NCBI GenBank assembly: GCA_012295275.1 | Contig: CM022670.1 | Location: forward strand, 6,882,001-6,946,000 | From: Chrysomallon squamiferum | Taxonomy: Eukaryota > Animalia > Mollusca | Reading direction: 5' to 3' | Length of the DNA stretch: 64,000 nt | Shown: one piece after another, positions 1 through 46,007 of the stretch | Layout of the letters: every line of letters begins with the position of its first letter | Numbering within the stretch: position 1 is the stretch's first letter | Position numbers and translations under genes: made by a program | Notes under the pieces: generated by a model | Seen by the model: only the letters and a program-made list of their open reading frames with translations | Databases searched by the model: none | Told to the model about the DNA's origin: nothing

Positions 1-1579
1 TGAAGATCAAGCTTTAGTAGTTATAAAGTTTGATAATTATTTATGTTTTAATCTTTAGGAAGAAATGTAATACAATAATAATAACAAATCATTTGTAAAA
101 CTAAACAAAGTAACTAATAAATAAAACAAGCTAATAAAGAAATGCACAACAGCATTAAAAACGAAAACTAATAATAATGAAAATAATTATGATTTATCTA
201 TTATAATTCTGTTGCATCAGTTCAAATTCAGTCTGGAAAATAAATTTAAAAATTAGAATTTTTTTTAAAAATTTGTGTTTTTATTTTTTTCCAATTCGGT
301 CTAAGACAACTTAAACAAATTGTCTCATTTTCTGAGTTCTTTCCCCGCAAGCGAATTTCTATTCAGCGGTACAAAAGAAACACAAAAACCCTTTCAGTAT
401 TTTGTAAAAGAAAACTAGAAGACGATTGTCTCTGACGAAACGAGAGACACGACTTGTTGATCTTCACATCTAGAGCAAACAACAGACTCGTCATTTTTCT
501 ACTCACAGAGAACAGCAAGTAAACAACAAGCTGTCTCCTCAATGGCGAATAAAGCTCAGAAAATACTTTCTCTTTAATTGGCAAAAATTCCAAGACCAAA
601 GCACGTTTTTAATCGCGTCTGAAATATAGGAAAGGATAACTGGATGAACCCAAATTTTCTTCTAGATTGAAAATTATTAAAAGAGCAACTTACGTGTTAG
701 TGAACTTGACCCGCTAGATATTCTAGATTTAATTTAAAATACTAACAGTGATATGCTGTGTAAATAATCTCACAATAAAACTGTACTGAATTCGTTTAAC
801 AAAATGTCCAACATAAAAGCAGCTTGCGGCCTACTGTAAGGCTGAGGAATTAAAGACATCAGGATCAGATCTTCAGAATATTTGAATATACTTTCCATTA
901 AAAACAGTGCTGTACCAGAGTCACTGCCGTAAAACTAATTAAGCTGATAATTCAAGGTCCCTAACCATTAGTCCAAATTGCTTAATAATTGTGATAGGAA
1001 TCTGAGATGTTACCTCTACGTGTGCATCGTGATCTGCGATGGGAGAACCCAGCTGATGAAAGTTTCACTGGTGAAGTGATATATAATAGCAAATGACTTG
1101 TGATGATTACACTATGACCATCATGCGACAATAATAGAGTTAAAAAGATCTATAAATAAATAAATAAATAAATAAAAAACAGACAAAAATTACTAAAATA
1201 TTTTTTTTACTACGAATGCATTATTATACATACAAGTTTATATACAAAATTTTACCACTTTTTATTAAGGATCATGATATATGGCATACATAACAAATCA
1301 GGTAAAATAAAAGAATATTTAAAAGATCAACAACATTATTATTAATTTTTTTATTAATTTTACAAATAACTTGTTTAGAGTAAACTGTAAAATATTTCTG
1401 CAAACAATTCACAGAATAGAAACACTACAATTATACAATTTGTTATCAACGACCAAAAAATGTAACAGAATGTAATCAGCAAGTAAACAGACCAAAACAA
1501 AATAAATAAATAAATAAATAAAATATCCCTGAATTAACCATTAATTTAGTATCAGTCTGACCCACAATCCAAACACACA

Positions 1580-1611
<32 letters not shown>

Positions 1612-2895
1612 CACACACACAAAGAACACAAATATATAATAATTTATTTGAATATTTTTTGGCAGTAAGTTAACTTGCAGAAGAAAAAATAGAAAATAAT
1701 TATTGTGGTTTAAAATTAAACAGATATGTAAAGATATCAGAGATAAATGAAAATAGAAAATGCTGATCCTTTGCACGTATAAATATCAGAAACCCTGCCA
1801 TAGATATACAGAAACAGATATATAACCAAACAAAACACTTTTCTTATCACAATTAATAAAATTCAAGAAGAAACTGACAATTTTCTATACATAAACAGTC
1901 GTATATTCTCATTTTGAAGGCCATTTAAAATAATAATAAAAATTAGTCTTATTTTTTAAATACTGCTTTCAAACAAAATATATTTTTTCTTCTTTTTAAA
2001 TATTATAATTATGTCAGCAATATTTTTTTTTTATCCTTTTTTATTCTATTATATTTTAAAATTTCTTTCCTTTGTTTTAACATATCTTCAAAACCCACCT
2101 TTTTTTTATTATAAATATTCTTCTTTTTGGGATATAATAAGTGATGGAGAATATCTACTATTCAGGTGTTTTGATACTACAGTATGCATTATAATTAAAC
2201 TAAATGTTGATTTGATGCCAGTCACATAAATAACAGTCCTGTTATTCTGTCTGTGGTTCACACACTTCATTGATTACAAATTCAACAATCTAAACACTAC
2301 AAAAAATATTTACAAACTACGAAACAATTACAACACACAGAGTGAAATGTCCATCCAAAAATCATTTGTTAAAATATCAATCATAAAAATCTATTTTGTT
2401 TTGTAAACAGAAACACCAGCTTGTGAGAGAAACTACACTTTCTATTTATTTATTTATTTATTTATTCATTTATTAATCATTATTTAAGTTTGTTAAATTA
2501 TTTGAGATTTGTTCAGCCAGTATGAAGAAATAAACTTTACAAGTCTGGATAATTAAGTTACTATTCAATAAGTTTACTTCAATGCTGAGAACATATCTAA
2601 TTATTTTGGCACTTTTATATTTATTTAATTATTTTTGAATATTTACAGAAATTTAAAAAACTAATTAATAATAATTTTTTTTTTTTTAAATATCAATAAA
2701 AAAATAAAAAAAAATAATAAATTCTGATGTCTTTGGCAGACACAGAAAAATAAAATGCAATAAGTCAGAGATCACACAAATGCCATTCATTAAATTAGGA
2801 AGACCAAGATCTGCCCTAAACCTTTAACTGACACAAACATTATTTTAAATTCAAATAAGAAATAGATGGAAAATTCACCCTAACAAACCCCACAA

Positions 2896-2961
2896 AGACT
2901 GGGATATCAAATTTAGGTTTCCACACGACGTGGTTTTAACCCAAATCATCATTATCAGTCT
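2896..2961 (-). promoter_or_regulatory. SECIS element (type II) in the 3' UTR of the PUB-domain gene
   Basis: Minus strand reads AGACUG-AUA-AUGAU-GAUUUGGGUU-AAAA-CCAC-GUCGU-GUGG-A-AACCUAAAUU-UGAU-AUCC-CAGUCU. Helix I AGACUG/CAGUCU; internal loop; AUGA...UGA core; 10-bp helix II (8 Watson-Crick + 2 G-U); unpaired AAA; apical mini-helix CCAC/GUGG. Confidence 0.9.
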
Positions 2962-3516
2962 CAACAAAAACACGCAAAGTTACAGTTATCTCCCCTTCAA
3001 TTCAATGACAGATTTGTCTTGTTGTGGTTACAGAAAAAGACAATTATACAAAAATGTTTATCGACTCGAAAACACCAACACAACACATCTTCCACTGATT
3101 CAAATTGTTGAAATAATGATTCTGTGACATTATAACATCAATGTTCATGGGGTTACATATACACTTAAAAATCGCTATCATTTACAAATAACATTGTGAC
3201 TCGTAATATTTTCAAAAGTTTTCAAAAATGGGGCATTATTATTCAAACATTCCACAACATTTTGATTTAGAAATAGTATATCATAATTTAACCTGAAACA
3301 TACATGACATTATTAAATTCCAGATATGTAATGACTTCAAGAAATTAAAACATGATGGATCCATGATTTTATTCAAAATAAGCACCCAAATGAAAAACAA
3401 AATGTGAAAATAAAACCAGTAAATGAGTTTGTAGAAAACACGAACAGTCTGCAGTCTGTATCTCCGAATGTCTGTCACTGAAGAGGAGGAGATTTAGGAA
3501 AAAACTGACTTGAAAC

Positions 3517-6007
3517 CTAACCTCATCCACCTCCACCCTGAAATATAAAATAAAATTTTACAACAATAATTTTGTCTATACACACTATAAAAAAAAATCA
3601 CTTGACACTTGACACATGATCATTATCAATGTTTTGCCCACTGTATACGAAGACATCCTATTCAAATTATTTAAAAGGAAATGGTAGATTGAAATGCCAG
3701 TGTTTAATTAGTAGTTGTTTGTTATTTATTTATTTATTTATTTTGTCGGTTATTTTATGACACTGTTAAAAATGCCTTGCATTAACCAGTATTACTAATA
3801 TTACTATATTTTTAAAATTGTTTTTGTCGTTAGATATATGTCACAGTTATGACTGGAATACTTACACGATTTTCAAACTTCTTGAATGTGCCAGAGTCCA
3901 ACTTCTTTGCATGCTGAAATGTGAAATACGTAAACAAAAGTTGAAATAATAAAAAAAATCAACTGTATATATTGAAAGTGAGATTTAACTTGTTTCTTCA
4001 TATGGTAAAATTTGTATGCTATTTATTATCCAAATAATCAATGGAACTAACTCATTGTTCTAATTATACTGTTATTTACCATTCAAATATTAAAATGTTA
4101 ATAAAATAAATTACTTGCATTCATTATTTTTACTGTTTATTTACTTTCAAAAAAAGAAAAAGATTATAAATAATTAAAATGAAATTAACTTTCTAAATAT
4201 TTAATAATTAATACAATTATTACAATAAATTATTTCAGTTAATTATTTCTTACTGATTCTTTGACTTCTCTGCTGTTAGCATCTTTCCGATCTGCTTCAA
4301 TCTGAAATGTTCATATGTTTAATTTTTTTATTACACTCAAGTTATACTATTGCAATAATTAAAAGATAATTTTATAAGAATCTTTCCAGATTTATGAGTG
4401 GTCATATAACTGTTAAGTGGCTGCATTACAGTCATAACAATAAAATTAGCAAAATAACATGGAAACATTAATTATTACTGCCGTTAATAAAGATTAACAC
4501 TGGTACAATTCAAAAAACAAAAAACAAACAAAAAATATAATCAAATAATGTATGTTTTTGGACATTTTGTTCCCATTGTAATGTTCAATATTTTTAAATC
4601 ATAATAATAAATATTCTCTCTATCATAATACTAAATATTCTGCAAACAATAATGAATTTTAAATAAATTATAACCAAAAAAACATATTTCTCTTATTAAC
4701 AGTTTGCCAAACAGTTATCCAGATTATAAATAATCAATGTTTTCCATCTTCTTTCTCAACAATTATTAAGAATAAAAATAATATAAACGTTTTTTTTTTT
4801 TATCTACAAGCAACCGACATAAAAATTAGTTATATTTCACTGGTCACATAAAATAATAATTTTTCATTCTAGATTAACATCAATTCATGTTTATCTAATT
4901 TTAACAAACTGGAAGTAATGTACTGACAATGTCTATATTCTTGAATACTGATTTTTACATTTATTTTTAAAAATTCACATTATTCATTTAAAGCCAGTTT
5001 ACATCTTTCAGTCAATAACCTTATAAATGGAGTTTACAGTAAAATAGATTAATCAAAATCAGCTAACATGAGTTTATCTATTTTGTCTTTCAAAACTGCT
5101 TAAAAAAACATCTTTATAAACATTTCTACTGAAATATTGGAGAATGGATTGAGTAAAAACTATTTCTTTATTAATTAATAAGTAATGTGGCAACTTGGTA
5201 AATCATTGATATTTTTTTTCTGAGGTCAAAGGGACAAATCTTTCTGGTACATTCATCAGCTTGTCTCCAATTTCAGTCAGTTTCGCATAGAAAGTTTTTC
5301 TTGTATAAATACTAATTAACTTAAATCTTATGTTTTTAGGTAATCAATGAATCAAGCAAAACAAATAACGCATGAATAATATTAATAATTTTTTCCAATG
5401 TACCTGTTTTTTAATGGCTTCTTTTTCTTTCTTAATTCTCTTTATTTCTTCCATTCTTTTCTGTTTTTCTTCTTCTATCAGTTGTTCCTTTTCCCTTAAC
5501 TAAGATAGAAACAGAAATTTAAATTAACTGAATATTTAATACTACATTTAATCTTATATTTATTATCATTATTTATCAGATTAAATAAATTAATTATACT
5601 GAATACAGTTATCAAAAAAAAGTAATGTACTTAAATGATTAGGGCAAATTATAAAAATTAAATTTTATTTTGAAAATAGACTGGTTAAGAAAGATTTTGG
5701 TTTTGATATAACAAACATTGCTATTATTTTGGATAATTGAATTTTCTTTCATTATTTTAATGGCTCTACAACAAATGAGATATTCTTAATATTACTTAAT
5801 ATTATGAAATATTAGCTTTCTTTTTATGTTGGAATTTTTAGAAAAAATGTTTTAACATTTTTGTAGTAAATACCTCTTCAGGTGTCCATGAAGATGAAAT
5901 GTCTGGAGGTGTCACGACCTTGGGTGCTGCTTGAACAGGAGGCAGAGTGCTGAAATAACAATAATGATGATGTTGATGATGATGACGATAATAATACCAG
6001 TAGTAAC

Positions 6008-6039
<32 letters not shown>

Positions 6040-8334
6040 GAGCAATACTACTACTACTACTACTACTACTAATAAAATAGTGAAAATAAAAATAAAAATA
6101 AGAATAAGAATAATGACGATAATAACAATAATCAGTAATCAGTAATAACATCTAAAGTGAAATTAGTGAAATAATTTACTCAATTTTTATTATTCCATTA
6201 TGTGTATCTTCTTTATGACTGGATGTAACACATGTCTAGGTACTGTGTATACATCTGTGTAAAGTTATATAGTGTGAACTTACTGAAGTTTTTCTTCTAT
6301 TACTTGTACCACACTGTCCACTCTCACACTAGACTCATCAAGATACATCAAGAGTTCATCCACCTGCAAAATAAACACATAAACCGCTTTTAAATAATAT
6401 ATCAGTTTAAAAAATTCTGATACACTCTATGCCAATCATGTGTTTATCTTTCTATCTCTCTTTTAAAAATAATTAATAATAGTACAATATACCCTCGCCT
6501 GTTTGGTTCCCCATTCATGCCCCCAAGATATTGAGGTTAGGCTCTTAACCCTATCGTGATCGTATGTTGGTATACCAGGCACTCATAAACTCAAATCGGT
6601 AAAGCACAAACAATATCAAATTTTTTCAATTATTATTCAATACAGAGTTCATCCATATTTTTTGTGACCTGCAAAATTAAATATTATTACTGAATTGTAT
6701 TATTATTACCTGAAATTTATCTGTCTGTCTTTTTAAATTTGTTCCACTTTCTGTCAATAATATATCAGTTTAGAAAAACTTTTACGGTACAGTAATACTG
6801 TATGGGTAACTATGCTATGTTACTGTCCTCCTGTACAACGTTTCTTTCTGATTAAAATATTGTTTCAGTACAAAATTAAAATGTGTTTACATTATCATTA
6901 CTACATTAGTGAAAGACATAACTGCATGCAATATTACTACATTATTACTGTATTAATGAGTAAGAGTGTCTTTAGAAAGTGTTTGGGAAGCATTTAGTAC
7001 CGTATATAATCTCATAATAGACGTTTTAAAACTGCATCCAATATTAAAAAAAAAAAGGGAATACTGTACTATAAAAAAATAAAAAATAAAAATAATAACA
7101 CACATGTAAAAGCAAGCAATATTCAAAATTAATGTTGCAGTTAGACAAGAGAAGTAAAGTATAATTAATAATTTCTTAAGATTTTAGTATGCTAATCAGA
7201 ACAAGATGTTCTGAAATAATCCTGTTTATACAGTATGTAACTGTGGTATTACATTTACCAACAAACCTCAGTGAATCCTATGTTGTATTTAACTGCACAC
7301 AGTATGATATTACATTTACAAACAAACCTCAGACAATCCTATACTGCATTTAACTGTAAACAGTGTTATTTTACATTTACAAACAAACCTCAGTCCAGCC
7401 AGCAGCAAGCAGAAACTCTTTGGCTCCCTCAAACTTCAACACTTTCTCTTTAACAAGCTTGTTTTCTTTTTTCAACTGTTTGTATTTTTCTTCTCCAGGA
7501 TGCTTCTGAAGATTTCTAACAACAAATGAAAAATAACATGAAAAAAAAATCAAATAAATTAATAAATAATAGTAAAATAAAATAGATATCATCACACTGT
7601 TTGGTTGTCAATTTTCATTATTAAATGTTAAAATAACAGAACAACAAAAAATTGTTTTTAAATGTTTTTAAAAAGTAATACATATATAAATGAAATGACA
7701 CAATAATAAATTATTTGTAACAATACTGTTTGGTAATCTGCTTTGCCATATTAAATTTAAGCAATTCTGTGGAAATTATTAATTTTTATATCTTGTTTCC
7801 TGTGTATTTTGAGATGATACAATTTGCAAAAGTGTAATGCAGACAAATTCAGTGTTAATATGGTTGCTAATCAAGATAAATGATAGCATGCCCTTTCATC
7901 ACTTTTTCTGCTGACATTTTTGTTCACAGCTGAGATTAAAATTAAATGTATGACTGGTTACCTTTTTATTTATATTTAATGCCTAAAGAATTACTACTTA
8001 GTTACTACGCAACAGTAAGTCATTACTTTATTTATAATTATATATTTGGGATTCCAATTTTTGTCTGATACTGTTAAAGATAAATATTCTTGAGAGAAAC
8101 CAAAATGATTTTTCTTCTGAATTCGACAGAACTGTGTTAATATAACAAAGTACTGAACTCATAAAGGACTAACAATGTGAATGTCTCATTATTTATCTGA
8201 ATGAATAACACTCACTGATGAATTTTCAACAAAACACTGAGTGTTGAGTGAAGTTCCTCTTTCTGTATCTCATCTTCAAGAAGAAGCAAACAAGTCTTCA
8301 GAGAGTCAATGTCTTCTGCAACTGCTTCTGCCAT
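3517..8334 (-). CDS. PUB-domain protein (p97/VCP cofactor family) with coiled coil and C-terminal GGGG-U-G; probable selenoprotein, 204 aa with Sec203
   Basis: Hand-spliced GT-AG exons with consistent phases: 8334-8216, 7515-7389, 6363-6284, 5949-5874, 5499-5404, 4301-4254, 3913-3866, 3537-3517 (615 nt). Translation: MAEAVAEDIDSLKTCLLLLEDEIQKEELHSTLSVLLKIHQNLQKHPGEEKYKQLKKENKLVKEKVLKFEGAKEFLLAAGWTEVDELLMYLDESSVRVDSVVQVIEEKLHTLPPVQAAPKVVTPPDISSSWTPEELREKEQLIEEEKQKRMEEIKRIKKEKEAIKKQIEADRKDANSREVKESHAKKLDSGTFKKFENRGGGG(U)G*. LLKI..N...HP.EEKY..L...N.....KV....GA.EFL.AAGW is the PUB/PUG signature. An acceptor (ttttag) lies 2 nt before the ATG, implying a non-coding first exon. Confidence 0.9.
6485..7066. 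mobile_element. Non-autonomous DNA transposon (Tc1/mariner-pogo-type MITE), degraded copy in the intron between coding exons 2 and 3 of the PUB gene
   Basis: Colinear with 52933-53638 and nearly identical over a ~230-bp internal stretch; ends TA|CAATATACCCTCG ... GGGAATACTG|TA. Confidence 0.8.
7218..7393. repeat. ~61-bp tandem repeat, ~3 copies, overlapping the donor of PUB coding exon 2
   Basis: acaaacctcag recurs at 7261, 7322 and 7383. Confidence 0.75.
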
Positions 8335-10375
8335 AACTAAAATAAAATAATTTTCTTGTTAAGAATACTAATATGAACTGATCAGAAAGCTAATATCTCC
8401 TCATTTAGACAAGCTTTCCATATTATATAACAGCTTTGGCCTATTATTAAATTTATTTATACATAATGTACTTTATATTTCAATGCATTTAGTGTTCTGT
8501 GTTAACTGTATTAATATTATCAATTATGTATTCACACTATTCACTGTATTGTATATTGAAATTTGAAAACACTAATACAAGTGATTTGAGGATAAATATA
8601 TGTAATTAATCATTCGTATATTGAATTTTATAACATCTATTAATCATCAGTTGTCGATTTAAAACATGATATAAAATGCTTTACACAAAATTGCAAATAC
8701 ATTATAATCGTTATAAGCAGAAACCTGGCGTTTCGAAATTAAGACGTGTTCGACAATATAATTCGTATTGATATAAATTATAATGCTACTAATTTCACAA
8801 TTAAATAATTTCTTCATTAAACAGTTGTAATACATTGTTAATAAACTTATAAAGTCACGCGCTGGACAAATATGGTTCATTTGTCAATTTTGTATTTTTT
8901 TTTTGCAAACCTTTTGTAGTTTAAAATGTCTGTAAACTATGCTTATCACCTGCCCGTTTTCTATGACAAAGCAAACAGAGTTATCGGTCCTGATTAGGAG
9001 TATTTTTGGTTTTAGTGGAATACTACAAAGTGTAACAAAAAACAACAAAAGAATGGATGAAAACAGGCAGTTTCTAAACAAAGTGAATGTTGAAAATAAT
9101 TATATCAACATAATCCATTAATTGAAATAAGTAAACAGAAAATAAAATATTATAAAATTCCAAAAGCTATATCATTAATAATAAACTTGTAATAAAAAAA
9201 AAAAAAAAAAATGTTTTGTCTTGCCTCTGATATACACTTGTACGTGTAGGAGTAATGAACAGTAAGACGATATACCACTCACTGGATGACCCAGTAAATG
9301 GTCTGTCCACTCTTCCAGTTATTACCAGTGATGTCACACGTCTCCCTCCCAACATGTAATGTTCTATTCTACAGTACGAATGCACAGAAATTAAAGCAAC
9401 AATAACAAAACAAACAAAAAATCATGCGGGTCTTGTTCCATCAGAGACAATGATTGCATGTTGAATAGTGGTTAAACACAAACATAATAACCGAAAGATT
9501 AATAGAATAATGTACTTTTTAAACATGTAATTAACATGTTTTCTTGAATATTAATATTATAAACCTCTTCAGAAAAAGGTGCTTGTTTGTTTGTTGTATT
9601 TTGCTATAGTATGGAGTAGGAAATGTCCGCATCTATAACCCCCCGTTCTCCTCAGTGTGCCCCAATTCTCCCCGTTTCCAGTCAACTTCAAAAACATCAG
9701 AGAAATAATAACATCGATCAAACAATGAATGTCAGTGATTGACAATGAAGATGATTGTTAATAATATGCGTTATAATAATAAAAATACTGGAAATAGGAC
9801 TGACATTTATTTTAACATGCAAGTATAACAATAATATTAAACGATACGTGACGTAATTATAAAATTATAACATTGACGTCAAAAAATAAAAATAAAATAA
9901 AATAAAAAAGTATCTCAGTTATATGTATAAATAGATAAATAAATAAATAATCAAAAATAAAAGTATTATCATAATTTAAAAAATAAGAGAAGAAGAAGAA
10001 GAAAAGAAAAGAAGAAGAAAAAAAAAGGAAACGAAAGAAAACAGACACGATAACAACAGTTCGCCATGCCTCTTCAGCCCATGCCTGAGTACGTATAATA
10101 ATTATTATTGTTGCTGTTGTTATTATTGTTGATGTCGTTGTTGTCTTGTTGTTCTATATTTATTATTTCTTTATATTTCTTTCTTTCTTAATTAATTAAT
10201 TAATTTATTTATTATTACAAAAACTATATATATTGCTTTTATTTCTTGTTGCTTGTGTACAATCGAATCAGTGGAACCGAGCATGAAATAACATGAACAA
10301 TAATAATGATACATTTATAACAGTTTGATGTGGCAATGAATAAAAATGAATTAAACTAATATTTTTAACTCGTGA

Positions 10376-11302: not shown

Positions 11303-13425
11303 ATGGCTTTGGCCGAGAGGAAATACGATCTTGCATTAGTAGCAACGGTAACTGATAAGAAAATCAGACCACAGCCTTGGTAATATGTTTTGTAATTCGT
11401 GTAGTTACTTGAAATAGATGAAGAGGGCACCTGTCGTCTGCTTATAATAATTATATTATTGGATATTCATATTACAGTAACTGATTTAATCATGCATCTT
11501 GCGTAATTTTTTTTTTTTTTAAAGATTAAAATTAAAAATGACACAGTTTTTATTTCATTTATTTGTTTTTTTAATCGATAATAAAGAAAATATGTTATTA
11601 AGTTATTTTTAAAATATTTGTTAAGGCTTTATAATTATTTGGTATTTTTTGTTTATGAGTTAAGATCATTCAAAATGCAGTATTGTCACAAATAAACTGA
11701 GTGGATTATTCAAGTACGTTTAGAAGATTATATATATTTAAAATTTCTGGAAGTAAAAGGAAAGTACCTACTAATTCATTAAAATTAACTAATTAATTGT
11801 GTACATTTATTTTTCAGGTACAAAGAGAGATTGAAAACTAAATACATAAAGTCACTGAAACCATCTGATAGGTCTAAGAATCTAATAGGAAAGAACTGGC
11901 TGTTTGTTAAAGATGGTTTGGATGACTTTCGAGATGGTGTTCCACCAACTGTGGATGGAAATATTCTTATCTCAGTATGTGTGTTTCTTCTGTAATGCAA
12001 TTCTTAACATTTGTTGTCAATATTTATAACTTACTGTAATTCTGGTGACATTTTTATTTTAAAATTAATTTTAAGTAATTGAGAATGTTATATGTTAACT
12101 ACATGATTGCTTGAAGGCTACTATGAATAGACTTTATAAAATATGCTTTAAAATTTATGTTTATAGCTGGATTTCCAAGAAATGATAAATGGATAGTATT
12201 TTGAAACTTTCTAATTATTAAAATGTGCATAAATTGCTCTTTGAAACTATTTCAGATAAAAATCTGATTTTTAAAAAAAATTTCATACTGAAATTTAAAT
12301 TTGTATCATGGACTTTATTTTGAAATAATTTTTTATAAATCAGTTTAAAAGTTAATAATATCTTGCACAAATGCATGTTGAAACTGAACTGTACTTATCT
12401 CACGCACACTTCTTTAGGATTATTTCATATACAGCTTGAAAACAAGATTCTTTTGAAATAGTTCCAACTGACACATAAAAGATTGTTTTTTGGTTTTGTT
12501 TCCTACTAGCTTTGTATCATAAATTATATTGGAAAATTTTATTTTGGCTTGCAGCCAGAAAAAGGTCCAGGACCTACCATCTCAGCTAGTGATTCAAATG
12601 TTTCTCCAGTAAAACAGCCAGCCATGACCCAGCGATTTGACAAAAATCAGATCTGTTACTCTCGAATAACGCCACAGCAACTGGAACGTCGTCAACATAT
12701 CGATGAGATTGAGCATGGTCTGCTGAGACATCCTCTTGCCCTGTATCCACATCTAGAAGAAAGTGTCCCACCAGAGGTAAACATTTTTCACTGCTCTGGC
12801 TACTCATCAATTAGCAATGTTTAGTCTTTTATAAACCTTTTCCCATATATACAAAAGCACACTGCACAAACATTACACACAGTCACCGATTGGAACACAT
12901 TTTTGGTATTTGCCAGGGTTCTGTAAATGTGTAAATCAAAGTAAAAAAATGTATGCTAATTTGAAGAAATGTTAACAATAGCCTGTATGTGCTGTGTCAG
13001 GAGCAGATCTTTTTTTTTTGTCATTATTATTGTTACTACAAGGAATGTGTAACTGGTGACTCTTGATATTAAAACAGGTTCTGGTGTACTTAAACATTAA
13101 TTAAATTTGATTTCAGCTCTTTGAGGACATTGTGGATATCTTAGATCCAGAAATGACACTGGAGTCAAGTGATGAAAGTTCTGAAGAAAGCAGTGATCAT
13201 GCTATTCATGTTGAGGATGAGTCGGAAATGAAGAAGCCAGAGAGACAGGATGAAGTAGCAAAAGAGCAGAAACCTGTACTTGGCTCAGCTCATGCGTCAC
13301 GCCTGAATCTGGATGCAGAGAAGAAAGAGGAAGAGTAGGTGTCATTAGTTATTATTGTGATGTTGTTATTACTATTACTATTACTATTACTATTACTACT
13401 ACTACTACTACTACTATTATTATTA

Positions 13426-15478: not shown

Positions 15479-16366
15479 TCTTTTGCAATAAAGTGGTTTT
15501 ATTGTTGCAAATGTCGCGAAACTGAAATTTCAAAATCAACATTAACGTTCGTACTCAAATCGTTAAATAAAAAAAGCGTATCTTAATTTTAATAGATGAA
15601 TAGAGTACTTTTTGATTTGTATAATTTTAAATAATTATATAATAACAGTTTGTATTAAAAACTATTTTAAAATCAGGAGAAGCACATTGAAAATGTCACA
15701 AAAGAATTCTGCGAGTGGGTTGCCGACCTAGGAGGAGAGAGTAACAATATAGAGGAGTCGACAATCACTAGTCTGTTTGCCAGCGGTTACGAAACGAAGC
15801 CTGCCCTCTCTGTTCCCATCCACGTCGTTGAACTCACCAACGTTCCCCAAGAACTCCGCATGTCAGCTACAGCACCACAGCAACAGCCTGAAACCAGCAA
15901 GAAAGAGCAGAAACATTGCCAGAAAAAAAAGCGATGGGTTTGTTCAATTTATTTTTTAAAATATTTGTTTTCTTCACATTGTTTTTGCTTTCTGTTTTAT
16001 TTATTTATTTAATTTTTAAATTTTATTTTAATTTTAATTGTTTTTCTTCATATAATAGATATTTATAGTCTGTAGTTTTGAGGATAAAAATAGTTACATT
16101 TTGTAGTAAATTAATATTACTGTTTTATTTTTGTTTTATGTGATAATATAGTTTTGAATTAGCTTTTAACTAAGACATATAATAATTTCGAAATGTAACA
16201 ATAACAGTTTGATTTAAACATTTTTAAATAGCAAAACAAAGTTCATATTAAAATTCATCATCATTTTAAAATATTTTGAAATTTAACAAATTTAAGAGAT
16301 CCATCAAGTATGCGTTACCTAAATGTTTTCTATGATTAATAAAGAGTTAATTCCCTTTAGTGAATT

Positions 16367-27204: not shown

Positions 27205-28209
27205 TTAAGTCTTAATGTTGAATTCTTTACACCACACCGTGGCCCACGAGTTATAGTCCGTGATAGGAGTTATCTCCCTTGTTTTCTGAACGACTCTTGG
27301 CGAGAGAGGAACTTGGCCGTTTTTGTGTCGGATCGTGTCTAGGATGTCCATTGCACTCTCCAGTCTGTACGTCAACACGAGGCGTCGGTCGTGTGGAATG
27401 GTCTGCAACGACTGCGTCCTTTTCAGACTCCGCGGCGACAGATTCAAAGACGATATCGTCTGCGACGACGGCAAGCTGGGTCTACGTGACAGAAGTTTTC
27501 CCTGCGAGTCTTTCTGCTCAGCGACACTGTGCCACATGACGTCGCTCTGCTCGTCCGCGTCCTGCGGCTCCTGGTCCTCCTCGCACGACGACTTCTCGCT
27601 CTTCGTCTCCGACGTCGTCTCCAAGCCGCTGACGCTTTTCGTCTTCTTCCGTATCCCGATGGGATTCATCGGCGTCTTGTTACGGACGAGAAACGTGTTG
27701 CACTCGGGGTGGCTCTGCACGAGCTGGCTGTGCAGAACGTCCTCGTAACCCTTCATCAGCGAGTACTGAGCCTCCGGGGAGAGAAACGACGAGAATCGAG
27801 CCGCTGTTGGCATTTTGTGGATCACCTCCATCGTGTTCGCTCTCTCGACCGCGCCGCCGCTCACCTTGTTTTTCATCTGGAACGCCAGCCTGCATTTAAC
27901 CAAGCTCTTCACTTTGTTTCCCAGAGCCAGGAACCGCGGCTTTCCGCCGGGATTCGTGTAGTGCATTGGCGTGAACGAGTTCATCGTCGCTCTTCGCTGC
28001 AGACATTTTGCACCTGTCGTCTTCTCCACCTCCGTCACTGGCGGTTTAGAACTCAGCTCGTTGGATCCTAAGCAGTTAGTGGAATATCTTTTCACGACTC
28101 GTTTGTCCGGTCTCGTGGTAGGTTTACTAACCACCCGTTTCTCACCTGTTAGCGTTTCTTTGGGTCTTTCAGTCGTTTTAGAACTTTGCGATGTGGTTGA
28201 ATTTGGCAT
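27205..28209 (-). CDS. Uncharacterised 334-aa protein, single coding exon, basic and Ser/Thr-rich, probably largely disordered
   Basis: Longest ORF in the window, with a GC/CpG-rich coding-like composition against an AT-rich background. A candidate acceptor (catag, ~28223) just upstream of the ATG suggests a 5' UTR intron. No domain recognised. Confidence 0.75.
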   Translation of the reverse strand: MPNSTTSQSSKTTERPKETLTGEKRVVSKPTTRPDKRVVKRYSTNCLGSNELSSKPPVTEVEKTTGAKCLQRRATMNSFTPMHYTNPGGKPRFLALGNKVKSLVKCRLAFQMKNKVSGGAVERANTMEVIHKMPTAARFSSFLSPEAQYSLMKGYEDVLHSQLVQSHPECNTFLVRNKTPMNPIGIRKKTKSVSGLETTSETKSEKSSCEEDQEPQDADEQSDVMWHSVAEQKDSQGKLLSRRPSLPSSQTISSLNLSPRSLKRTQSLQTIPHDRRLVLTYRLESAMDILDTIRHKNGQVPLSPRVVQKTREITPITDYNSWATVWCKEFNIKT

Positions 28210-30084
28210 TGTTACACAGAACCTATGTTGCAGTTATTATCTTTTTTTTTTAATTCTTATCTAATTTATAAATATATCTTGTAAGTCTTTCGTTGCACAA
28301 AATAATAAACTCCTTATTTCATTTCTATAATTCCAAGAATACAAGAAAAACAAAAACAACAACAACAAGAAAAATCCAATTGAAAATTGTATCGTTTCAC
28401 CAGATTAATTTTCCAAAAATGTTTGCCCTTGTTATTTTGTTTTAGAAACAGCAACAACAACAAACAACCAAAACAATCATTTAAGATTCACGTACGGTGA
28501 AAGTGCAAGAACGAATCCGTATCATGATCCCTACTTCACAATAACGTCTGCTGGAAAATCTCTCCGATTTTAATAACTGGTTTAATACAGTGAGCGACAG
28601 CTGTTTGTACAACATTAAGCCACGCCTTCTGCTTTTGCAAAGTCAGTTTTCATTAGTTGTTAGTGACATTGTTTCTTCACGTTTGTTGTGATCTACGCCG
28701 CAGTTGTCACTGTGCCAAGAGAAAGCGTGTCTAGTCAATAGCTGGCTGGCTTTACGTGGTCCAGTACATACTAACGTATTGTGTAATACGCTCTTGAAAT
28801 CGCAGATTAATGATGTTGTAAACACACTCTCAGATTTAACCCCAGACCGAATATTCGTGCCTAAAGCTACAAACATTTTAAAATAATACACTAATGACCT
28901 TGTATCCTTAGTCATATGATATTAATTTTGTTTATTTCTAACAGAATTAAAAAGGACATGTACAACAGTTTTAGAAATTAAATAAGCGATTTATCATTAA
29001 AGATACAAACTTGTTGTTGTTTTTTTGGACGTTTTTGAACAGCAGCTATGTAGAAACATTTTTTTAAAATATCTTGCTTTGTTAGGAATAGGAGGATTGC
29101 CACTATTTTCAGGATGTTATTGGGAATGAACATTTGCTACCGCGATCTTTGTATGAGTCATTCATTCATTCTTCTACACCATAATTCAGAACTTAGTGCT
29201 TTCATCTGCTTAAACTTTAATCCATTATTCATTTATTCATTGACTCCTTTATTTGCTAAGCTAGTTACAGACAAGCTGATAGACAGACATTCAGACTTTT
29301 AGATAGATGAATGGATTAACAGATACGACAGATAAAGAAGATAGACATAGACATACAGACTGACAGAGAGACAAACAGAAGGACTGACACACAGAGAAAG
29401 AAATCGATGAAAAAGTTACCTTATTAAAAGTTAATTTGCAAAATGTGCTATTATTGTGTGTTGGTTAATTTTCATATTCATTTATTTTTTTTTTTTTTTT
29501 TTTTTTTGTTGTAAGCAAACAAAAAAAAAAAAAAATAAAAAAAATATATATATATAATTTAAATAAAATCAACATAATAAATACATAAAAGATCTGATAT
29601 CATATTATAGTCATGATATTCAGTTCTTACATTCTTTTTCAATGAGAAGTATGATATTGTTCACGGTTCGCTCATGTAGACAAAACATGTTTTCGTTATT
29701 TACCTGATATCGACTCAGACGACCACTGGCTAATAATTAGCTGTTTAAAAAAAAATCATTAACACGGACCATGCGGTTAGCTTTCCGTGTCAGTTATACA
29801 GACAACAATGTGCGTTAATATATGACTGATTTTCCAGCGGAAGTCTCTCTTCGTCATCGACCAGTCGAACAAATCGTTAACGTCCTCGACGTGTTCAGCA
29901 TTCCGCGACGATCACAACAACAGCAGTCGTTTGTGAGACTGTACCTGTGATGATGCGGACGTGTAGCGTATTACTGATGTTTCTAAGGAATTGTTTTATA
30001 TTAATTTTTTTATATATATTTTTTTTTATTATCATTTATATAAGTGTTGTTTGATACGTGTCAGTAATAATAATAATAATACCT

Positions 30085-37641: not shown

Positions 37642-38361
37642 CTATAACAAACAAGAAGACGTTGAAAACTGGATGTTTTAATGTAGAATTAAAACAGTCA
37701 TTACATTGTTGTCGGTGTTGGTGGCATTACCGTTGTTACTTTATCTAGAACTGATGCTGGAATGTCCACTAATTAAACTACTCTATCAGTAGCCAGTACG
37801 TCACATTTCTAACTCCGGACGTTATCCGTATCAACTTAAATACAAAATACCTAATAAATAAAAGTGATTTAAACAAAGCTGAAGGGAAATAACTCTTGTT
37901 ACTATGCAATACTGTTAAAATTATCGATATTAATGCCTAGAAGCTTAGCAGTTAGATTTTTCGCATGTTTAAAAGTACACTATAGCACGTAGATTATTTG
38001 TTTAAATATCAGTTTTAAACTTCTAGCTAATAGGACTTATTTTTATATTTTTTTTTTTTTTTTTAGGAGGTTTTTTTATATGTTGTTTTATACAGAAAAA
38101 TTTTTCTTATATATTCACGTTGCCGATATTAGCGATCAGTAAAATTACAGTAAACTGTCACATGATACCGGTATGGACGACACAAACTAGCAGATTTTAG
38201 CGATCAGTAAAAATTGTCGTTTTATATTTTTTCTAAATAAAATAAAATAAATAGATAATATAAACGAACAGACAAAACAAACAAATAAATAAATATTTTT
38301 AAAAAAATGACAGAAACAAAATGGTTTATTTGATGAATAATTTATTACACAAAGAGTTATT

Positions 38362-40994
38362 TTACTTTGTTATTGGAGCCGCAGTCGCTTTTAGAGCGTT
38401 CACTTTGTCTTGCACTGATGGCGGAATGTTCACTTTAGCAAGTTTGTGAACTACTCCGTTTGTCGCAGATATATCTTTTGTCAGAATCTGAGAGCTACCC
38501 GCGTCGTAACCAACTGTGAAAACATCACAACATCAGTATTAATTAATTATATATTAAAAATATAGCATTAACAATGTCTGACCGTCAAAATAACACAACA
38601 TCAGTATTAATAACGTATTTAAATTATAGCATTAACAATGTCTGACCATCAAAATAACACAACATCAGTATTAATTAATTATATATTTAAAATATAGCAT
38701 TAACAATGTCTGAGCGTCAAAATAACACTACATCAGTATTCATAACGTATTTAAATTATAACATTAACAATGTCTGGCCGTCAAAATAACACAACATCAA
38801 TATTAATAACGTATTTAAATTATAACATTAACAATGTCTGACCGTCAAAATAACACATCGGTATTAATAACGTATTTAAATTATAACATTAACAATGTCT
38901 GACCGTCAAAATAACACAACATTAGTATTATTAATAACATATTTTAAAGAGAGCATTATTAATATAATCGATTTTCAGAATAAGGAAATATCAAATGTAA
39001 TAGCGTATTTAAAATAGATCAATGCTAACACCATAAGAATAAATTAATAAAGTACTATTAATGGTGTCACTTCTTTTTCAAAATAACAAAATTTCATACC
39101 TAATTAACCTATAACCACTACTGTTATAGAAACTAAAATTACTGATGCAATCTTCAAGATAATATGTGGCGGAAGAATAAATGTCAAATTTAACGTAATT
39201 CATAATTAGGGCTTTTTATTTGGCGTTTTTGCTCATGAAATAAGAATAATAATCAAACACAGATACATGATCAAAAAGAGTAAGATGACGACACAAAAGA
39301 GTTTAAAATTTTTCTGCAGCTACAAAGTCCTACAAATATAGAAATGTTAATCAAAAACCCATTACTTATCGAGACATTATAAGATGAAGTAAACACAGCT
39401 GAGAGTTGGTCTGTGTCACGGACTCTGATACTCACAGAAGAGAAATTTGTGGAGTCTCAGTCTGTCAGCTTCGTCAAACGTCTCCAGTCTCTGCTCGTGG
39501 AAGTCATCGCTCCACAGACTTCCTGGTACCACGTGATATTTAATAATAGCTGTAGAGATAAAATTGTTAGTGTAAATTCATTGTATAGATTTATAATATA
39601 TAAATTTTAAAAAATAATAATAATAAAATAAAATAAAATAAAAACAATAAATAAAAATTATAAAAATAAAAAGAAAGAAGCACGTGGACATCACATGACA
39701 AAGTCTCATGTATAACTGAAACGTGACATGCAGATAAACCGTGATATTTCACGTGAAAAGTAAAACAAAATTTACAGCATAATGAGACGTGTTTTTATTT
39801 AATTTATTATTATTATTGTTATTATTATTACTATTATTATTATTATGATATATAAATTTTAAATAACACTAAGAAAGATTGTTTGTACCTAATACTAAAA
39901 CAGGCAGGCTGTCTGTATTTATTACTAAGAAGAGAAGGTTTCTACTTACTGGTAAGGAGGGCAGGCTGTCTGTATTTATTACTAAGAAGAGAAGGTCTTC
40001 TTACTGGGGCAGGGGGCTGTCTGTATTTATTACTAAGAAGAGATAATTGTTTGTACTTAATACTGGTACAGGAAGGCTGTCTGTATTTATTACTAAGAAG
40101 AGAAGGTTGTCTTCTTACTGGTAAGGAGGGCAGGCTGTCTGTATTTATTACTAAGAAGAGAAGGTTGTCTTCTTACTGGTAAGGAGGGCAGGCTGTCTGT
40201 ATTTATTACTAAGAAGAGAAGGTTGTCTTCTTACTGGTAAGGAGGGCAGGCTGTCTGTATTTATTACTAAGAAGAGAAGGTTGTCTTCTTACTGGTAAGG
40301 AGGGCAGGCTGTCTGTATTTATTACTAAGAAGAGAAGGTTGACTACTTACTGGTAAGGAGGGCAGGCTGTCTGTATTTATTACTAAGAAGAGAAGGTTGT
40401 CTTCTTACTGGTAAGGAGGGCAGGCTGTCTGTATTTATTACTAAGAAGAGAAGGTTGTCTTCTTACTGGTAAGGAGGGCAGGCTGTCTGTATTTATTACT
40501 AAGAAGAGAAGGTTGTCTTCTTACTGGTAAGGAGGGCAGGCTGTCTGTATTGGAGGAGGGCAGGCTGTCTGTATTTATTATTTAACTAAGAAGAGAAGGT
40601 TGTCTTCTTACTGGTAAGGAGGGCAGGCTGTCTGTATTTATTACTAAGAAGAGAAGGTTGTCTTCTTACTGGTAAGGAGGGCAGGCTGTCTGTATTTATT
40701 ACTAAGAAGAGAAGGTTGTCTTCTTACTGGTAAGGAGGGCAGGCTGTCTGTATTTATTACTAAGAAATGAAGGTTGTCTTCTTACTGGTAAGGAGGGCAG
40801 GCTGTCTGTATTTGTTACTAAGAAATGAAGGTTTCTACTTACTGGTAAGGAGGGAAGGCTGCTGAACCAAGCCTTGAACGACAGAATCTCCGAGAGCTTT
40901 GAATGCATCGTTTGTTGGTGCAAACATTGTGATTGGATCTTGTTCTGTAACAAAAAATAACAGCAACATCAACAGCACTAATAATAATAGCAAA

Positions 40995-41047
<53 letters not shown>

Positions 41048-42979
41048 TGATGATGATGATGATGACTATGATAATGACTACAATAACAACAACAATACTA
41101 CTAATAATATATATTGATAATGATGGTATTAATGATAATGACGTCGATAACAATGAAAATAATGTTTGCTATAAAGAAATCGATGATGAAGATGACAAAT
41201 AAAAGGTCGAAGACTGGTTACCTTGTAAGAATGTTGTCAGACCGGCGCTTTCCACCATCTGTTTCAGCGTGCTGAATTGGGGGTCGTTGGCGAGGACGTC
41301 GATGACGCTGCCGACTGGAGGAATCATGACGTCATTTAACTCGTGCACGATGCCGTTATCTGCCTTGAGTCCTGCGTGGAAGATTTTCACCCCTTCTACA
41401 GCAATGTGCTACAATAAATAAATTTAAAATATACAAAATATCAACACACAGTCACAACAGGTTTCAGCTTTTTTTTTATAACAGTAATGATGGACAATTT
41501 TTTTTTTCGTCTCTTAAGCAGAAAATAGGAAACCATTGTTTCTTACAGGCCTCTGACTGTAGAAAGAAACAGTCCATTTAAAGTAACAAACTGAACTGTT
41601 CTAGCGATCAAATAAAATCAATACCCGAGCTTCGTTCCTCCCTGTTTTGTTGTGGTTTCGATAATAAACACTGCTGTCATTATATCATGTCGAAATATTT
41701 TAACTTAATGAAGTGAAGAATTATCTACATCTATATTTATAATGTAAAACACGTAGAATGTATACAAATCTGTAATAACCAATGAATACTGTCTGGACAT
41801 GTTATCTCTCTACCAGTCTGTGCCTATCACCTACAACCTATCAACGACTTAATTACCCACTGTTCAGTTCTTATTTCATCCATTCAACCATCTAGATATC
41901 AATTTTTTCATCCACTCATCCGTCTATCCATTCATCTGTCCATCTGTCTGTTTGTTTACAGTGTCTCTAACTTACATTGTTGAACAAATAGTGGTTGATT
42001 CTGATGTCGTGTCCTTCCATGGACTTTATCTTCTTCTCGTTAACTTTCAGATCGCTGGTCTGGATGATGCTGCCGTTCACGATGTGGTACTTGACGACGG
42101 CCGCCAGCACTGCCGTATCGTTTTTCAGTCTTTGCGCTGTGTCGGAGTCCATACGTCTGAAGGCGTGGTTCGTTGGAGCGAAAACAGTGAACGGTCCTTC
42201 GAAAAGTTAGAAATGTTGATTTGTTTAACAGCGCAGCCTGAGATTATTCATTATTTGTATGCCTGGATTTTATTGATAGTCAAATTCAGACATTGATATT
42301 TCAGAAAAAAAAGATAGCTGCATTCATCCTTTATTAGCAAGGAGTCTTTTGAACAACCTTACAAGAAAATAATATGACTGTTTGTGGTTGTAGTTGTTGC
42401 ATGCTGATGAAGATGTGAAATTAATCAAGAAACTACATTTAGACATCTACGCCTGACAGTTTTCCATAATTTTATCAGATAATAATAATAATAAGAAGAA
42501 GAAGAAGAAGGAGAAGAAGAAGAAGAAGAAAAAGAAGAACAAGAACAAGAACAACAACAACAACATCTACAAGAATAAGACAAGGACAGGACGACAACAA
42601 GAACATGAAAAACAAAAGCAAAAAAAAAAAAAAAAAACAAAAAAACAACTGAAATACAATACAAAGAAGTTCGAAAAAAGATGAAACACAAGGAGAAGAA
42701 GAAGAAAATAAATCTTTCACCATTCCATCATCTGAACTTGATAGATCGATAACATTGAAAATAAATAACTATATATGTTTACGCTAACACTGAGAATATT
42801 CATAAAACTAAAACAAAATAATATAAAAAAATACCTGTTCCTCTCAACACATCGGATAAGCCGGCGTTGTTAATGTCGTTAATAAAGGTCGTCATTCTGT
42901 GGTACTGTAACACGTCGATCACTGTCCCGTGCTGTCCCAGGACACACCCCACCCCCAGCAGTAGCAAGAAAACCTTCAT
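38362..42979 (-). CDS. Secreted fasciclin (two FAS1 domains; periostin/TGFBI-like), 306 aa
   Basis: Exons 42979-42835, 42196-41976, 41408-41222, 40944-40843, 39549-39436, 38513-38362 (921 nt). Signal-peptide-like start MKVFLLLLGVGCVLG. FAS1 motifs GPFTVFAPTNHAF, KYHIV, ADNGIVHELNDVMIPP; then ITMFAPTNDAF, KYHVVPG, ATNGVVHKLAKVNIPP. AATAAA at 38341-38346 (-). Confidence 0.92.
38526..38960. repeat. ~64-bp minisatellite, ~6 copies, next to the acceptor of the last fasciclin exon
   Basis: Unit aacatcagtattaataacgtatttaaattatagcattaacaatgtctgaccgtcaaaataacac. Confidence 0.85.
39880..40865. repeat. 58-bp minisatellite, ~16-17 copies, containing the exon-4 end and splice donor of the minus-strand fasciclin
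   Basis: Unit ggtaaggagggcaggctgtctgtatttattactaagaagagaaggttgtcttcttact; the last copy merges into exon sequence near 40843-40865. Confidence 0.92.
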
Positions 42980-43173
42980 GGTTGCTGGAACAGAAAGACA
43001 AACTGTCTGTTGAGTTAGAAAACAGAAATCAACAGTTTACCGAGGTAAGACGTGAGAACACGTCCATCTGTTAAACACACGTCTCCTGGTATCTCTGAGT
43101 TCTTTTGACTTTAGACATTTTTTTAATTTTATGTCAAGGTGTATGTGTCATTTAGTCCGTCGACAATCAGTCA

Positions 43174-43276
<103 letters not shown>

Positions 43277-43690
43277 TGTATCTGGGTGTATGTATGTATG
43301 TGTGCGTGTATCTATGTATCTAAGTACATACGTACATTTGTATGTATGTATGTATGTATGCATGCACATATGTATTATAAGTGTGTAAGTATGTATGTAT
43401 TATGTATGTATTTATGTATGTACGTGTGTATGTTCGTTTGTATGTATTTATGTATGTATTTGTGTATGTTCGTTTGTATGTATTTATGTATGTCTTTGTG
43501 TTTGTTCGTTTGTATGTATGTATGTATGTCTTTGTGTATGTTCGTTTGTATGTATTTATGTATGTATTTGTGTATGTTCGTTTGTATGTATTTGTGTGAG
43601 TATTTATGTTTTGATGAAAGGATGGACGGATGATGGTTATGCATATTATTGTTAGTATTATTGTTATTATTATTGTTATTATTATTGTTA

Positions 43691-43760
<70 letters not shown>

Positions 43761-44057
43761 TTTCATACCTGTTTTAATTTCACTACCGAATGTGACCTTA
43801 TTCTACACTTTGTGTTTTATCGTTTGTTAGGTTGTTTTACTCTTTCTTTATCCTAATCTTCAGAAGACAAACATCTGCCGAGTTTACCCGGAGTCTCACG
43901 ATAGCATGGTTATTTTCACGTATTTACTCTCAGTAGAAACGTACATTCACATAGTGTTATAATGTTTGGTATATATTTTGTGTCTGTATCCATAAATATC
44001 TCCACAGCTGTTGGAACAAAAAAGCAACTCAGAAATCAGTCTGTTGAATTAGGGGAC

Positions 44058-44137
44058 AGAAGACTTAACAGTTTGTTTTATAAATAAATATATATATAGT
44101 TATTTATTTATTTATAAAACAAACTGTTAAGTCTTCT
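44058..44137. repeat. Perfect 33-bp inverted repeat with 14-nt spacer
   Basis: agaagacttaacagtttgttttataaataaata (44058-44090) is the exact reverse complement of 44105-44137; followed by (TA)n. Confidence 0.85.
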
Positions 44138-44543
44138 TATATATATATATATATATATATGTTAAATTATATGATGTGATTCTGTGGTGACTGAAACATA
44201 AAAGTAGAGATATAAAGTAGTATATTATAAAATAAAAACTTAGTAATATTTTTATCTATGTTTAGATTTTGACTGGAATACATTGTTTAAATGGTTCTGT
44301 TGTTTGTATATCAGTCAGATATATTTATTTACCATCACCATTTTTACACACTAAGGCAGTGTTATGTTATAATATTTGAATATTAGAGAATATTACTGTA
44401 TAACCAAAACAAGACAATATCAGATTGGCATTTTTTAAGGTTAATTAGAGAATAGTTTGAAAGAAACTACTGTTATATAAATACTGTTAGGAAATCTTCT
44501 TTCCAAAGAATAAATGTAGACAACTTGCCCTGATCTTTACAAA

Positions 44544-44643
<100 letters not shown>

Positions 44644-44800
44644 ATATATATATATAAATAAGCCGATGCCAGGAAACGATCTCATATTCCTACCATTATT
44701 AAGGTCATTAACAAGTGTTACTTTACTAACCACGTGACGTCTTATCAGCCAGGACTTGGACAGCGAGACCTCAGTCTGCTTCTGCTCTACAACAGTCGCC

Positions 44801-45139
44801 ATGTTCTCTGTCGTTCTTGTTACAATATGTTTGGGTACGCTGGTTCAAGCCATGCCCAACCTGGTAGAACTGGCTACAAGTCTCAACGCCACCCGCTTTG
44901 TCACTCTCGTGCAGCAGGCCGGACTTACTGACCACCTGAAAACTGCAGGTACAGCTCTGATAGATATACAGTTTTATAGCGATTTTTAAATTTTTAAAAA
45001 AAAATTGTTTTTTTAAATGTTTAATGTTTAAGTATCTTGTTCTTGTTCTTCTTCGTCTTCTTCTTTGTTGTGTTTTTCGTCTTCGTCTTCGTCTATTTCG
45101 TCATTTTCTTTTTCTTCTTTTCTTCTTCTTCTTCTTCTT

Positions 45140-45170
<31 letters not shown>

Positions 45171-45960: not shown

Positions 45961-46007
<47 letters not shown>

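Follow-up and report, generated by a model that had tools for sequence, protein, structure and literature searches.

We describe here a gene of the mollusc Chrysomallon squamiferum which quite probably encodes a selenoprotein acting in the p97/ubiquitin system. The gene lies in a stretch of 64,000 nucleotides (nt) (assembly GCA_012295275.1, contig CM022670.1, positions 6,882,001 to 6,946,000 of the forward strand), from here on called the window, in whose coordinates all positions are given. It is marked by a hairpin at 2896..2961 on the minus strand, a selenocysteine insertion sequence (SECIS) element of type II, which would make the ribosome read a penultimate in-frame UGA as selenocysteine (Sec) and yield a soluble selenoprotein of 204 residues. 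The element itself is an ordinary member of the Rfam family RF00031. What makes it valuable is the host gene to which it draws attention; this gene is of greater interest than the element and was left unnamed in the first-pass annotation of this DNA.

The SECIS element and its host gene

The first-pass annotation, made from the sequence alone, had claimed that all canonical SECIS elements are present, and every one of them was recovered with the Rfam model SECIS_1, the list of base pairs and the predicted fold; the hairpin is also contained in assembled RNA contigs. Helix I has the claimed 6 base pairs (bp), 2961-2956 being paired with 2896-2901, and is followed by an internal loop. The AUGA is situated at 2952-2949 and belongs, with the 5' side of the non-Watson-Crick core, to 2948..2952, where UGAU (2951-2948) lies opposite UGAU (2909-2906) and gives U.U, G.A, A.G and U.U, i.e. 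the tandem G.A pairs already proposed. The remaining elements are found within 2910..2947: helix II, paired at 10 of its 10 positions (2947-2938 with 2910-2919, two of the pairs being G-U), AAAA at 2937-2934, at the predicted distance of 11 nt past the AUGA, where 11-13 nt is usual for the family, and an apical mini-helix, whose 4 bp (2933-2930 with 2924-2921) enclose a loop of 5 nt. It is because of this mini-helix that the element is assigned to type II, in accordance with the earlier claim.

The match to RF00031 (2960-2897, minus strand) extends over model positions 1-64, which is the full model, with 40.6 bits (E 9.5e-05), compared to a gathering score of 35 bits, the threshold at which the first-pass annotation had proposed to check it. 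Among the 4227 families scanned this was the only match at gathering level in the window. Taken alone, the 66 nt of the hairpin fold with -19.9 kcal/mol (z -3.95), and none of 200 shuffled sequences was equally stable. When 15 nt of flanking sequence are added at either end, z is only -1.30, therefore folding energy by itself is weak support for the element. The AUGA/AA/GA pattern, searched on both strands, has a single site in the window, which is the SECIS. In 50 simulated sequences of 64 kilobases with the same dinucleotide make-up as the window, the strict pattern (10 of 10 helix II pairs) had no match in any of them, and the looser one (9 of 10) was matched in 30. Since the looser pattern is common by chance, it is the full score and the context that carry the claim, and not the letters of the motif. 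A plus-strand reading of the hairpin, which has no Rfam match and a weaker fold, was rejected, and so was the idea that the surroundings of the UGA (3430-3540) form a stable hairpin (z 0.16).

The host gene consists of eight coding exons on the minus strand, from 8334 to 3517, with 204 codons, and the exons are backed by RNA contigs. Exon 1 (8216..8334, 119 nt) begins with an ATG, a start shared by the homologs. The core of a PUB domain, matched by Pfam PF09409, is encoded by exon 2 (7389..7515, 127 nt) and the end of this domain, as also seen in the predicted fold, by exon 3 (6284..6363, 80 nt). A Pro-rich linker in exon 4 (5874..5949, 76 nt) is followed by a long charged helix, which is likewise present in the fold, in exon 5 (5404..5499, 96 nt), by the end of this helix with a conserved I-x-A-D-R motif in exon 6 (4254..4301, 48 nt) and by a conserved tail motif in exon 7 (3866..3913, 48 nt). 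The last coding exon (3517..3537), joined by a splice joint at 3536/3865 in three RNA runs, has only seven codons, GGT GGA GGT GGA TGA GGT TAG, i.e. Gly-Gly-Gly-Gly-UGA-Gly-TAG. Its in-frame UGA (3523..3525), codon 203 of 204, likely specifies selenocysteine and has the same position in relatives. All introns are GT-AG on the minus strand (CT..AC on plus), which is the strand of the SECIS, and the UGA, which precedes helix I by 561 nt, is found on the same RNA contig as the SECIS. Both the correct strand and the typical distance within a 3' untranslated region (UTR), as stated in the first-pass annotation, are thereby borne out; which strand this is had not been specified there.

Five public runs carry the 3' UTR and four of them were compared with the window: the RNA runs X1, X2 and X3, all from one study, and X5. 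Six of the seven coding introns were present as splice joints in X1, X2 and X3, and the positions on either side of the seventh (5949/6284) are contiguous in record 1 of X1, a contig of 1642 nt which extends from exon 1 over the UGA and the SECIS and includes 2724-3536. X5 has none of the coding-intron joints and covers the region unspliced. The 3' UTR (2483..3516) is unspliced to at least 2483, as seen in record 4 of X2 (2483-3536), and no variant letters at the UGA or in the SECIS are listed in the four runs. A loose end at 8338, found in three RNA runs, is explained by a non-coding first exon near 8911..8982, the limits of which are approximate, being matched by eye. These contigs show neither expression level nor transcript ends, nor do they show strand or single molecules, and on that ground the SECIS could be attributed to another transcript or gene, its position behind the PUB gene being incidental. 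We hold this to be extremely improbable, as in all three runs a single record covers exon 1, the UGA and the SECIS, the introns are GT-AG on the strand of the SECIS, and among the open reading frames in 1-3500 no other coding candidate stood out.

An AATAAA (3368-3373, minus strand) is located between the stop codon and the SECIS, with other signals at 2629 and 2474-2450. If the AATAAA at 3373 is used, an mRNA without the SECIS could result; a variant of SELENOS whose mRNA lacks the SECIS is said to exist. Intron 2 contains a high-copy repeat (about 6600-7050), which is also present in RNA contigs and where the depth of X5 is about 20,000 in comparison with about 50 elsewhere, and three degenerate 61-base units, starting at the donor site of exon 2, are found at 7241-7400 (motif at 7393, 7332 and 7271).

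Relatives of the gene and their UGA codons

A search among 1.84 billion representative proteins gave 568 proteins at E up to 0.001, and 25 at 1e-10. The best 150 of the 568 were listed. Among the relatives identified, the closest is a protein of the gastropod Gigantopelta aegis with 73.5% identity to the window protein over 200 residues. Organism names were looked up for 21 proteins and further ones were taken from other search matches. Mollusc members were found in Gigantopelta, three Haliotis, Patella, Lottia, Liolophura, Solemya and Potamilus, other animal members in the annelid Owenia, in the cnidarians Porites, Orbicella, Pocillopora, Acropora and Nematostella and in the sponge Halichondria, and a protist member in the ciliate Protocruzia. 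There is no vertebrate, arthropod or nematode among the named full-length members, and no search was aimed at this absence. In databases the relatives are annotated as PUB/UBXN6-like. Many members have 190-210 residues, the same helix and the tail consensus KFGANVKTFKDIGVDLNKGGG, and the PUB domain was present in all 31 members tested. In a tree of 55 rows, which leaves out Lottia and Nematostella, the window protein groups with Gigantopelta (100/99) and next with Haliotis and Patella (99/93), and a clade of 23 rows (99/96) includes it together with every named animal row. Judged by this placement, the gene is likely that of a gastropod.

Of 191 proteins examined, 64 possess both the helix and the tail motif, and 56 of these 64 stop on Gly, without Cys or Trp, directly ahead of the UGA column, while two end on Trp-Gly, one on Cys-Cys and five in another way. 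Three of these five (P0159 and P0160 of Porites, P0155 of Patella) diverge at the position of the window's last intron, which suggests that the tiny Sec exon is common to animals. Among 48 truncated forms the end is Gly in 43 and Gly-Gly in 35. The Trp-Gly ends belong to P0029 and P0045, one of which reads Gly-Cys-Trp-Gly; they are known at the protein level only and may be a consequence of TGA being called as Trp by the gene caller. The Cys-Cys end of P0110 is a possible Cys form. P0125, a longer PUB protein of 298 residues, also ends on Gly-Gly, behind a hydrophobic-x-x-Asp-Leu motif of similar kind, and could represent a second type of truncated selenoprotein. The ESM Atlas contained PUB clusters only, and the C-terminal part scored < 0.9, which is a lead at most.

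At the DNA level we used a degenerate tail pattern which ends ahead of the UGA column and so does not include the TGA. This pattern was found at eight loci (L001-L008) in metagenome contigs and had no match in viral contigs. In seven of the eight loci GGG-TGA is followed by Gly or Ser and then by TAA or TAG. Over 681 nt there is no difference between L001 and L008, which represent one gene, therefore there are six distinct genes in addition to the window. In all seven distinct genes of the family (the window plus six) the codon at the putative Sec position is TGA, never TAA or TAG, and a second, different stop is situated two codons past it. L002 and L003 have about 80% identity to proteins from the Porites cluster, and L004, which ends GGG-TGA-Gly-TAA, has an N-terminal extension of about 100 residues before the PUB domain. 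The L006 protein is 98.8% identical to the database protein P0058, which ends GGG; judged by this near identity, P0058 is a direct case of database truncation at TGA.

Canonical AUGA/AA/GA hairpins are present 59-302 nt past the stop in L002, L003, L005 and L006, and none was found on the opposite strand. The probability of such hairpins in shuffled 3' regions was 0.003 for L002, 0.013 for L003, 0.001 for L005 and 0/1000 for L006. The G+C content of these genes ranges from 36% to 61%, and the sequences of helix II differ with 9-10 of the 10 pairs being kept, as seen when the elements are anchored at the core. When L002 is compared with L003, helix II differs at both partners of position 4 (U-A to A-U) and at one partner of three positions. 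L008 has, 166 nt past the stop (1324 to about 1277, minus strand), a hairpin with an AUGA/GA core and a bulged helix II, without the apical AA, which was found only after the search was relaxed and is possibly a non-canonical SECIS. Conservation of the structure in related species was a further check proposed in the first-pass annotation, and its outcome is positive, though only at the level of the family: the hairpins are kept in relatives, with scores below the Rfam cut-off.

Several points speak against the presence of a selenoprotein family of this kind. The case is built on sequence and on assembled RNA contigs, the latter from three runs of a single study. SECIS_1 gives L002 26.7 and L003 23.3 bits, which is below 35, and has no match in L005 and L006 at E up to 10. 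Behind the six genes of the relatives four hairpins are canonical and one is non-canonical, as the gene represented by L001 and L008 has no canonical hairpin in 1490 nt; the 3' sequence of L004, being only 79 nt long, is too short for a SECIS search. L007 fits the tail motif but is without TGA, and with a match of only 15 residues it is likely a chance match, though no more than 175 nt of its upstream sequence is covered. The tally of 64 proteins is redundant, 12 of them coming from one coral cluster, and in part consists of the sequences that built the motifs, and the named animal relatives are represented here by proteins alone.

The UGA could, accordingly, be seen as the ordinary stop of a PUB protein of 202 residues, the second stop as a back-up and the hairpin as a product of chance or a leftover. 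All relatives are annotated in this way in databases, the looser SECIS pattern occurs in 30 of the 50 simulated windows, and the evidence for Sec is at the level of sequence. An ordinary stop is hard to reconcile with TGA in seven out of seven distinct genes, followed by one small residue and then by TAA or TAG as a later, different stop, and a window SECIS above the Rfam cut-off, with canonical hairpins in four relatives across 36% to 61% G+C, also stands against it. We consider this possibility very improbable. The spliced gene on the same strand, the UGA on the same contig and the UGA-Gly/Ser-stop and SECIS-like hairpins of the relatives are all in accordance with the initial opinion that the hairpin is not there by chance. 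Insertion of Sec would proceed, with high probability, through SBP2/eEFSec, since this recoding route is established for eukaryotic SECIS elements.

The PUB domain, the predicted Sec tail and a possible link to p97

The host protein is composed of a PUB domain (exon 2 matches PF09409 with 48.6 bits and E 8e-13, the cut-off being 34.3), a long helix and a flexible tail. It has no membrane-spanning segment (hydropathy maximum 0.95 over 19 residues) and one Cys in all, at position 15. The predicted model of the Haliotis ortholog (mean predicted local distance difference test score, pLDDT, 84.6; predicted template modelling score, pTM, 0.57) has the PUB domain connected through a loose linker to a helix at 137-181, with a tail that is extended and predicted at lower confidence, and its best structural matches are the PUB domains of UBXD1 and PNGase, ahead of those of SPATA2 and HOIP. 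PUB domains are described as binding the C-terminal Leu-Tyr-Gly of p97 and as lying at its D2 face (PMC10641518). The PNGase pocket residues N41, K50, Y51, R55 and N58 correspond to N, K, Y, K and N in the window protein, and the equivalent of PNGase Y38 is Ile38. Among 48 members this first pocket position is occupied by Leu, Ile or Val in 39, by Tyr in four and by Phe in three. In terms of the motifs of the p97-tail pocket, K/RxxN, N and the second Tyr are kept and the first Tyr of YxxN(x)9Y is Ile. The conserved F-x-D-Ile motif of the tail was considered as a Shp1 D1-binding motif and dropped, as the accessible part of the source (PMC11362554) gives no sequence for that motif, which is weakly conserved in p47.

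In the mechanism that we favour, the PUB domain would dock on the p97/VCP unfoldase. Binding to Leu-Tyr-Gly at the C-terminus of p97, or to some motif like it, as predicted from the pocket residues, has in our estimate only slightly better than even chances, because the first pocket Tyr is replaced by Ile, like in most members. The helix of about 45 residues may then space the Gly-Gly-Sec-Gly tail from the dock, and the selenol may reduce disulfides or peroxides on or close to p97 substrates, which by analogy we regard as an evenly balanced proposition. The selenol would be re-reduced from outside the protein, because the only Cys is at position 15. A redox job for the tail, which to us could go either way, is proposed because in P0062 the same PUB and helix body (helix motif E 4e-05) continues into a thioredoxin domain (Pfam E 5e-23) that has a CGPC site. 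In P0039 and P0094, which are apparently partial models, a thioredoxin domain likewise replaces the Sec tail. These three proteins form their own clade in the tree together with P0061.

This mechanism has to be weighed against three observations. The pocket is without the first Tyr, which has been called essential for p97-tail binding, and in SPATA2, whose PUB domain binds no motif of the p97-tail type, this position is Val (both as given in PMC6995525). A VIM-like motif was present in none of the 48 members. Finally, there is no resolving Cys near the Sec position. It could be that the protein is a selenoprotein whose PUB domain has another partner than the p97 tail, and that the Sec tail serves a different complex of the ubiquitin system, for example a deubiquitinase or ligase with an oxidation-sensitive Cys. 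The aliphatic first position in 39 of the 48 members and the missing VIM-like motif are consistent with such a partner, and the SPATA2 PUB domain, which binds CYLD, is a precedent (PMC6995525). We nevertheless find this alternative unlikely, given that the remaining five pocket positions are kept and that the nearest structures are the PUB domains of the p97-binding PNGase and UBXD1, before those of SPATA2 and HOIP.

At low selenium, termination at the UGA would leave a Gly-Gly end, which might be a degron of the KLHDC2 type, as in SELENOS and SELENOK; by this analogy we give it roughly equal odds. The Sec tail may even be mainly a selenium-sensing switch, where readthrough hides the Gly-Gly degron, termination exposes it and the level of the p97 adaptor tracks selenium. 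The ends of the truncated forms (Gly-Gly in 35 and Gly in 43 of 48), the missing resolving Cys, the di-Gly degron in which truncated SelK and SelS end (PMC10767929) and the AATAAA at 3373, which could yield an mRNA without SECIS, are all in accordance with a switch. As the main function of the tail it seems improbable to us, since the full-length form likewise ends on Gly, the thioredoxin domain in place of the tail in P0062 points to redox chemistry, KLHDC proteins are described as vertebrate (PMC10767929), and the roles of switch and catalyst are compatible with each other.

Relation to known families and significance

Compared to the type II elements of RF00031, the window SECIS is alike throughout, while the relatives score lower and the candidate of L001/L008 is without the apical AA. 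The GGUG end had suggested identity with SELENOS or SELENOK, which was rejected on account of the PUB domain, the lack of a membrane segment and the lack of a Pfam match (SelS or SelK in none of six members tested, E up to 10). The window protein shares with SELENOS a penultimate Sec codon in a Gly-Gly-Sec-Gly end and a long helix, and with both SELENOS and SELENOK a link to p97, which is predicted here, and a Gly-Gly end upon premature termination. Unlike SELENOS, it has a PUB domain and neither a membrane helix nor a VIM-like motif. SELENOS itself has a penultimate Sec, the end GGUG and peroxidase activity in vitro (PMC6844570), and by analogy the family described here likely resembles SELENOS in its way of working without belonging to it. 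UBXN6-like or PNGase-like membership was also rejected, as there is no UBX or glycanase domain, and in all six members tested PUB was the only Pfam domain above its cut-off. The PUB domains of UBXN6/UBXD1 and PNGase (NGLY1) have the same fold and most of the pocket residues in common with the window protein, which differs from them in the absence of the first pocket Tyr and in its likely Sec tail, not known for these proteins.

A "PUB domain-containing" family is listed among 42 algal selenoprotein families, where it is among the least widespread and outside the 19 families also reported in animals (Jiang et al. 2020, PMC7539508). The text of that paper describes no function for it, and its name possibly stems from an earlier paper on algae. 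The likeness, a PUB domain in a Sec-containing protein (here a predicted one), is one of description, and on this description the algal family is probably the same as ours. For six invertebrates 21 selenoprotein families were given, with no PUB entry in the part of the source available (Jiang et al. 2012, PMC3473315), and members with a Gly end are encoded by two of these six species, Lottia and Nematostella. The Seblastian paper reports that new families are found via Cys homologs (PMC3753652), and such homologs seem to be almost absent from the family described here (one of 64 ends Cys-Cys). PUB, UBX and PUG had no match in two of the three supplementary files of that paper, PUB as a whole word is absent from PMC6627142, and the accessible part of PMC13134290 names no PUB family. 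A report of an animal PUB selenoprotein was not found in the literature searched, which consists mostly of open papers whose supplements may mention one. The family appears to be unreported in animals and uncharacterised anywhere, and surveys may have missed it because Sec would be penultimate and on a tiny last exon and because Cys homologs are almost absent.

Apart from this gene, exons of a neighbouring gene are found on the plus strand at 12510-12821, 13111-13335 and 15671-16009, the first of which matches Pfam FAM47 (E 3.2e-06). An open frame of 342 residues with 53% G+C and no significant Pfam match is located at 27208-28233 on the minus strand. Exons with fasciclin domains are situated on the minus strand at about 38300-47200 (41970-42206 with E 1.8e-17, and 41172-41408), and near 44738-44986 on the plus strand there is a similar-looking start of a secreted protein, without a Pfam match. 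A frame of 207 residues at 61749-62369 on the plus strand looks by eye like a glycosyltransferase exon and has no Pfam match at E up to 0.1.

The families of animal selenoproteins are treated as a nearly closed set, with 19 of them in vertebrates (PMC13134290), and current surveys mostly search by homology to known families. Our broadest proposal is a tentative one, with somewhat less than even chances: that this is an ancient and almost Sec-only animal family, extending from sponge and cnidarian to annelid and mollusc and shared with protists, which would form a soluble third p97 selenoprotein arm, docked at the exit face of p97 and bringing redox chemistry to unfolded substrates, with a Gly-Gly degron as selenium sensor. 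If true, a further family present in sponge, cnidarians, annelid and molluscs would change the family counts, and many database entries, which are now two residues short, would be corrected. SELENOS and SELENOK would also be joined by a further selenoprotein with ties to p97, one that is soluble and has a folded docking domain. For this reason it would be an easier model for the role of the C-terminal Sec of SELENOS, whose cellular substrate has been called unknown (PMC6844570).
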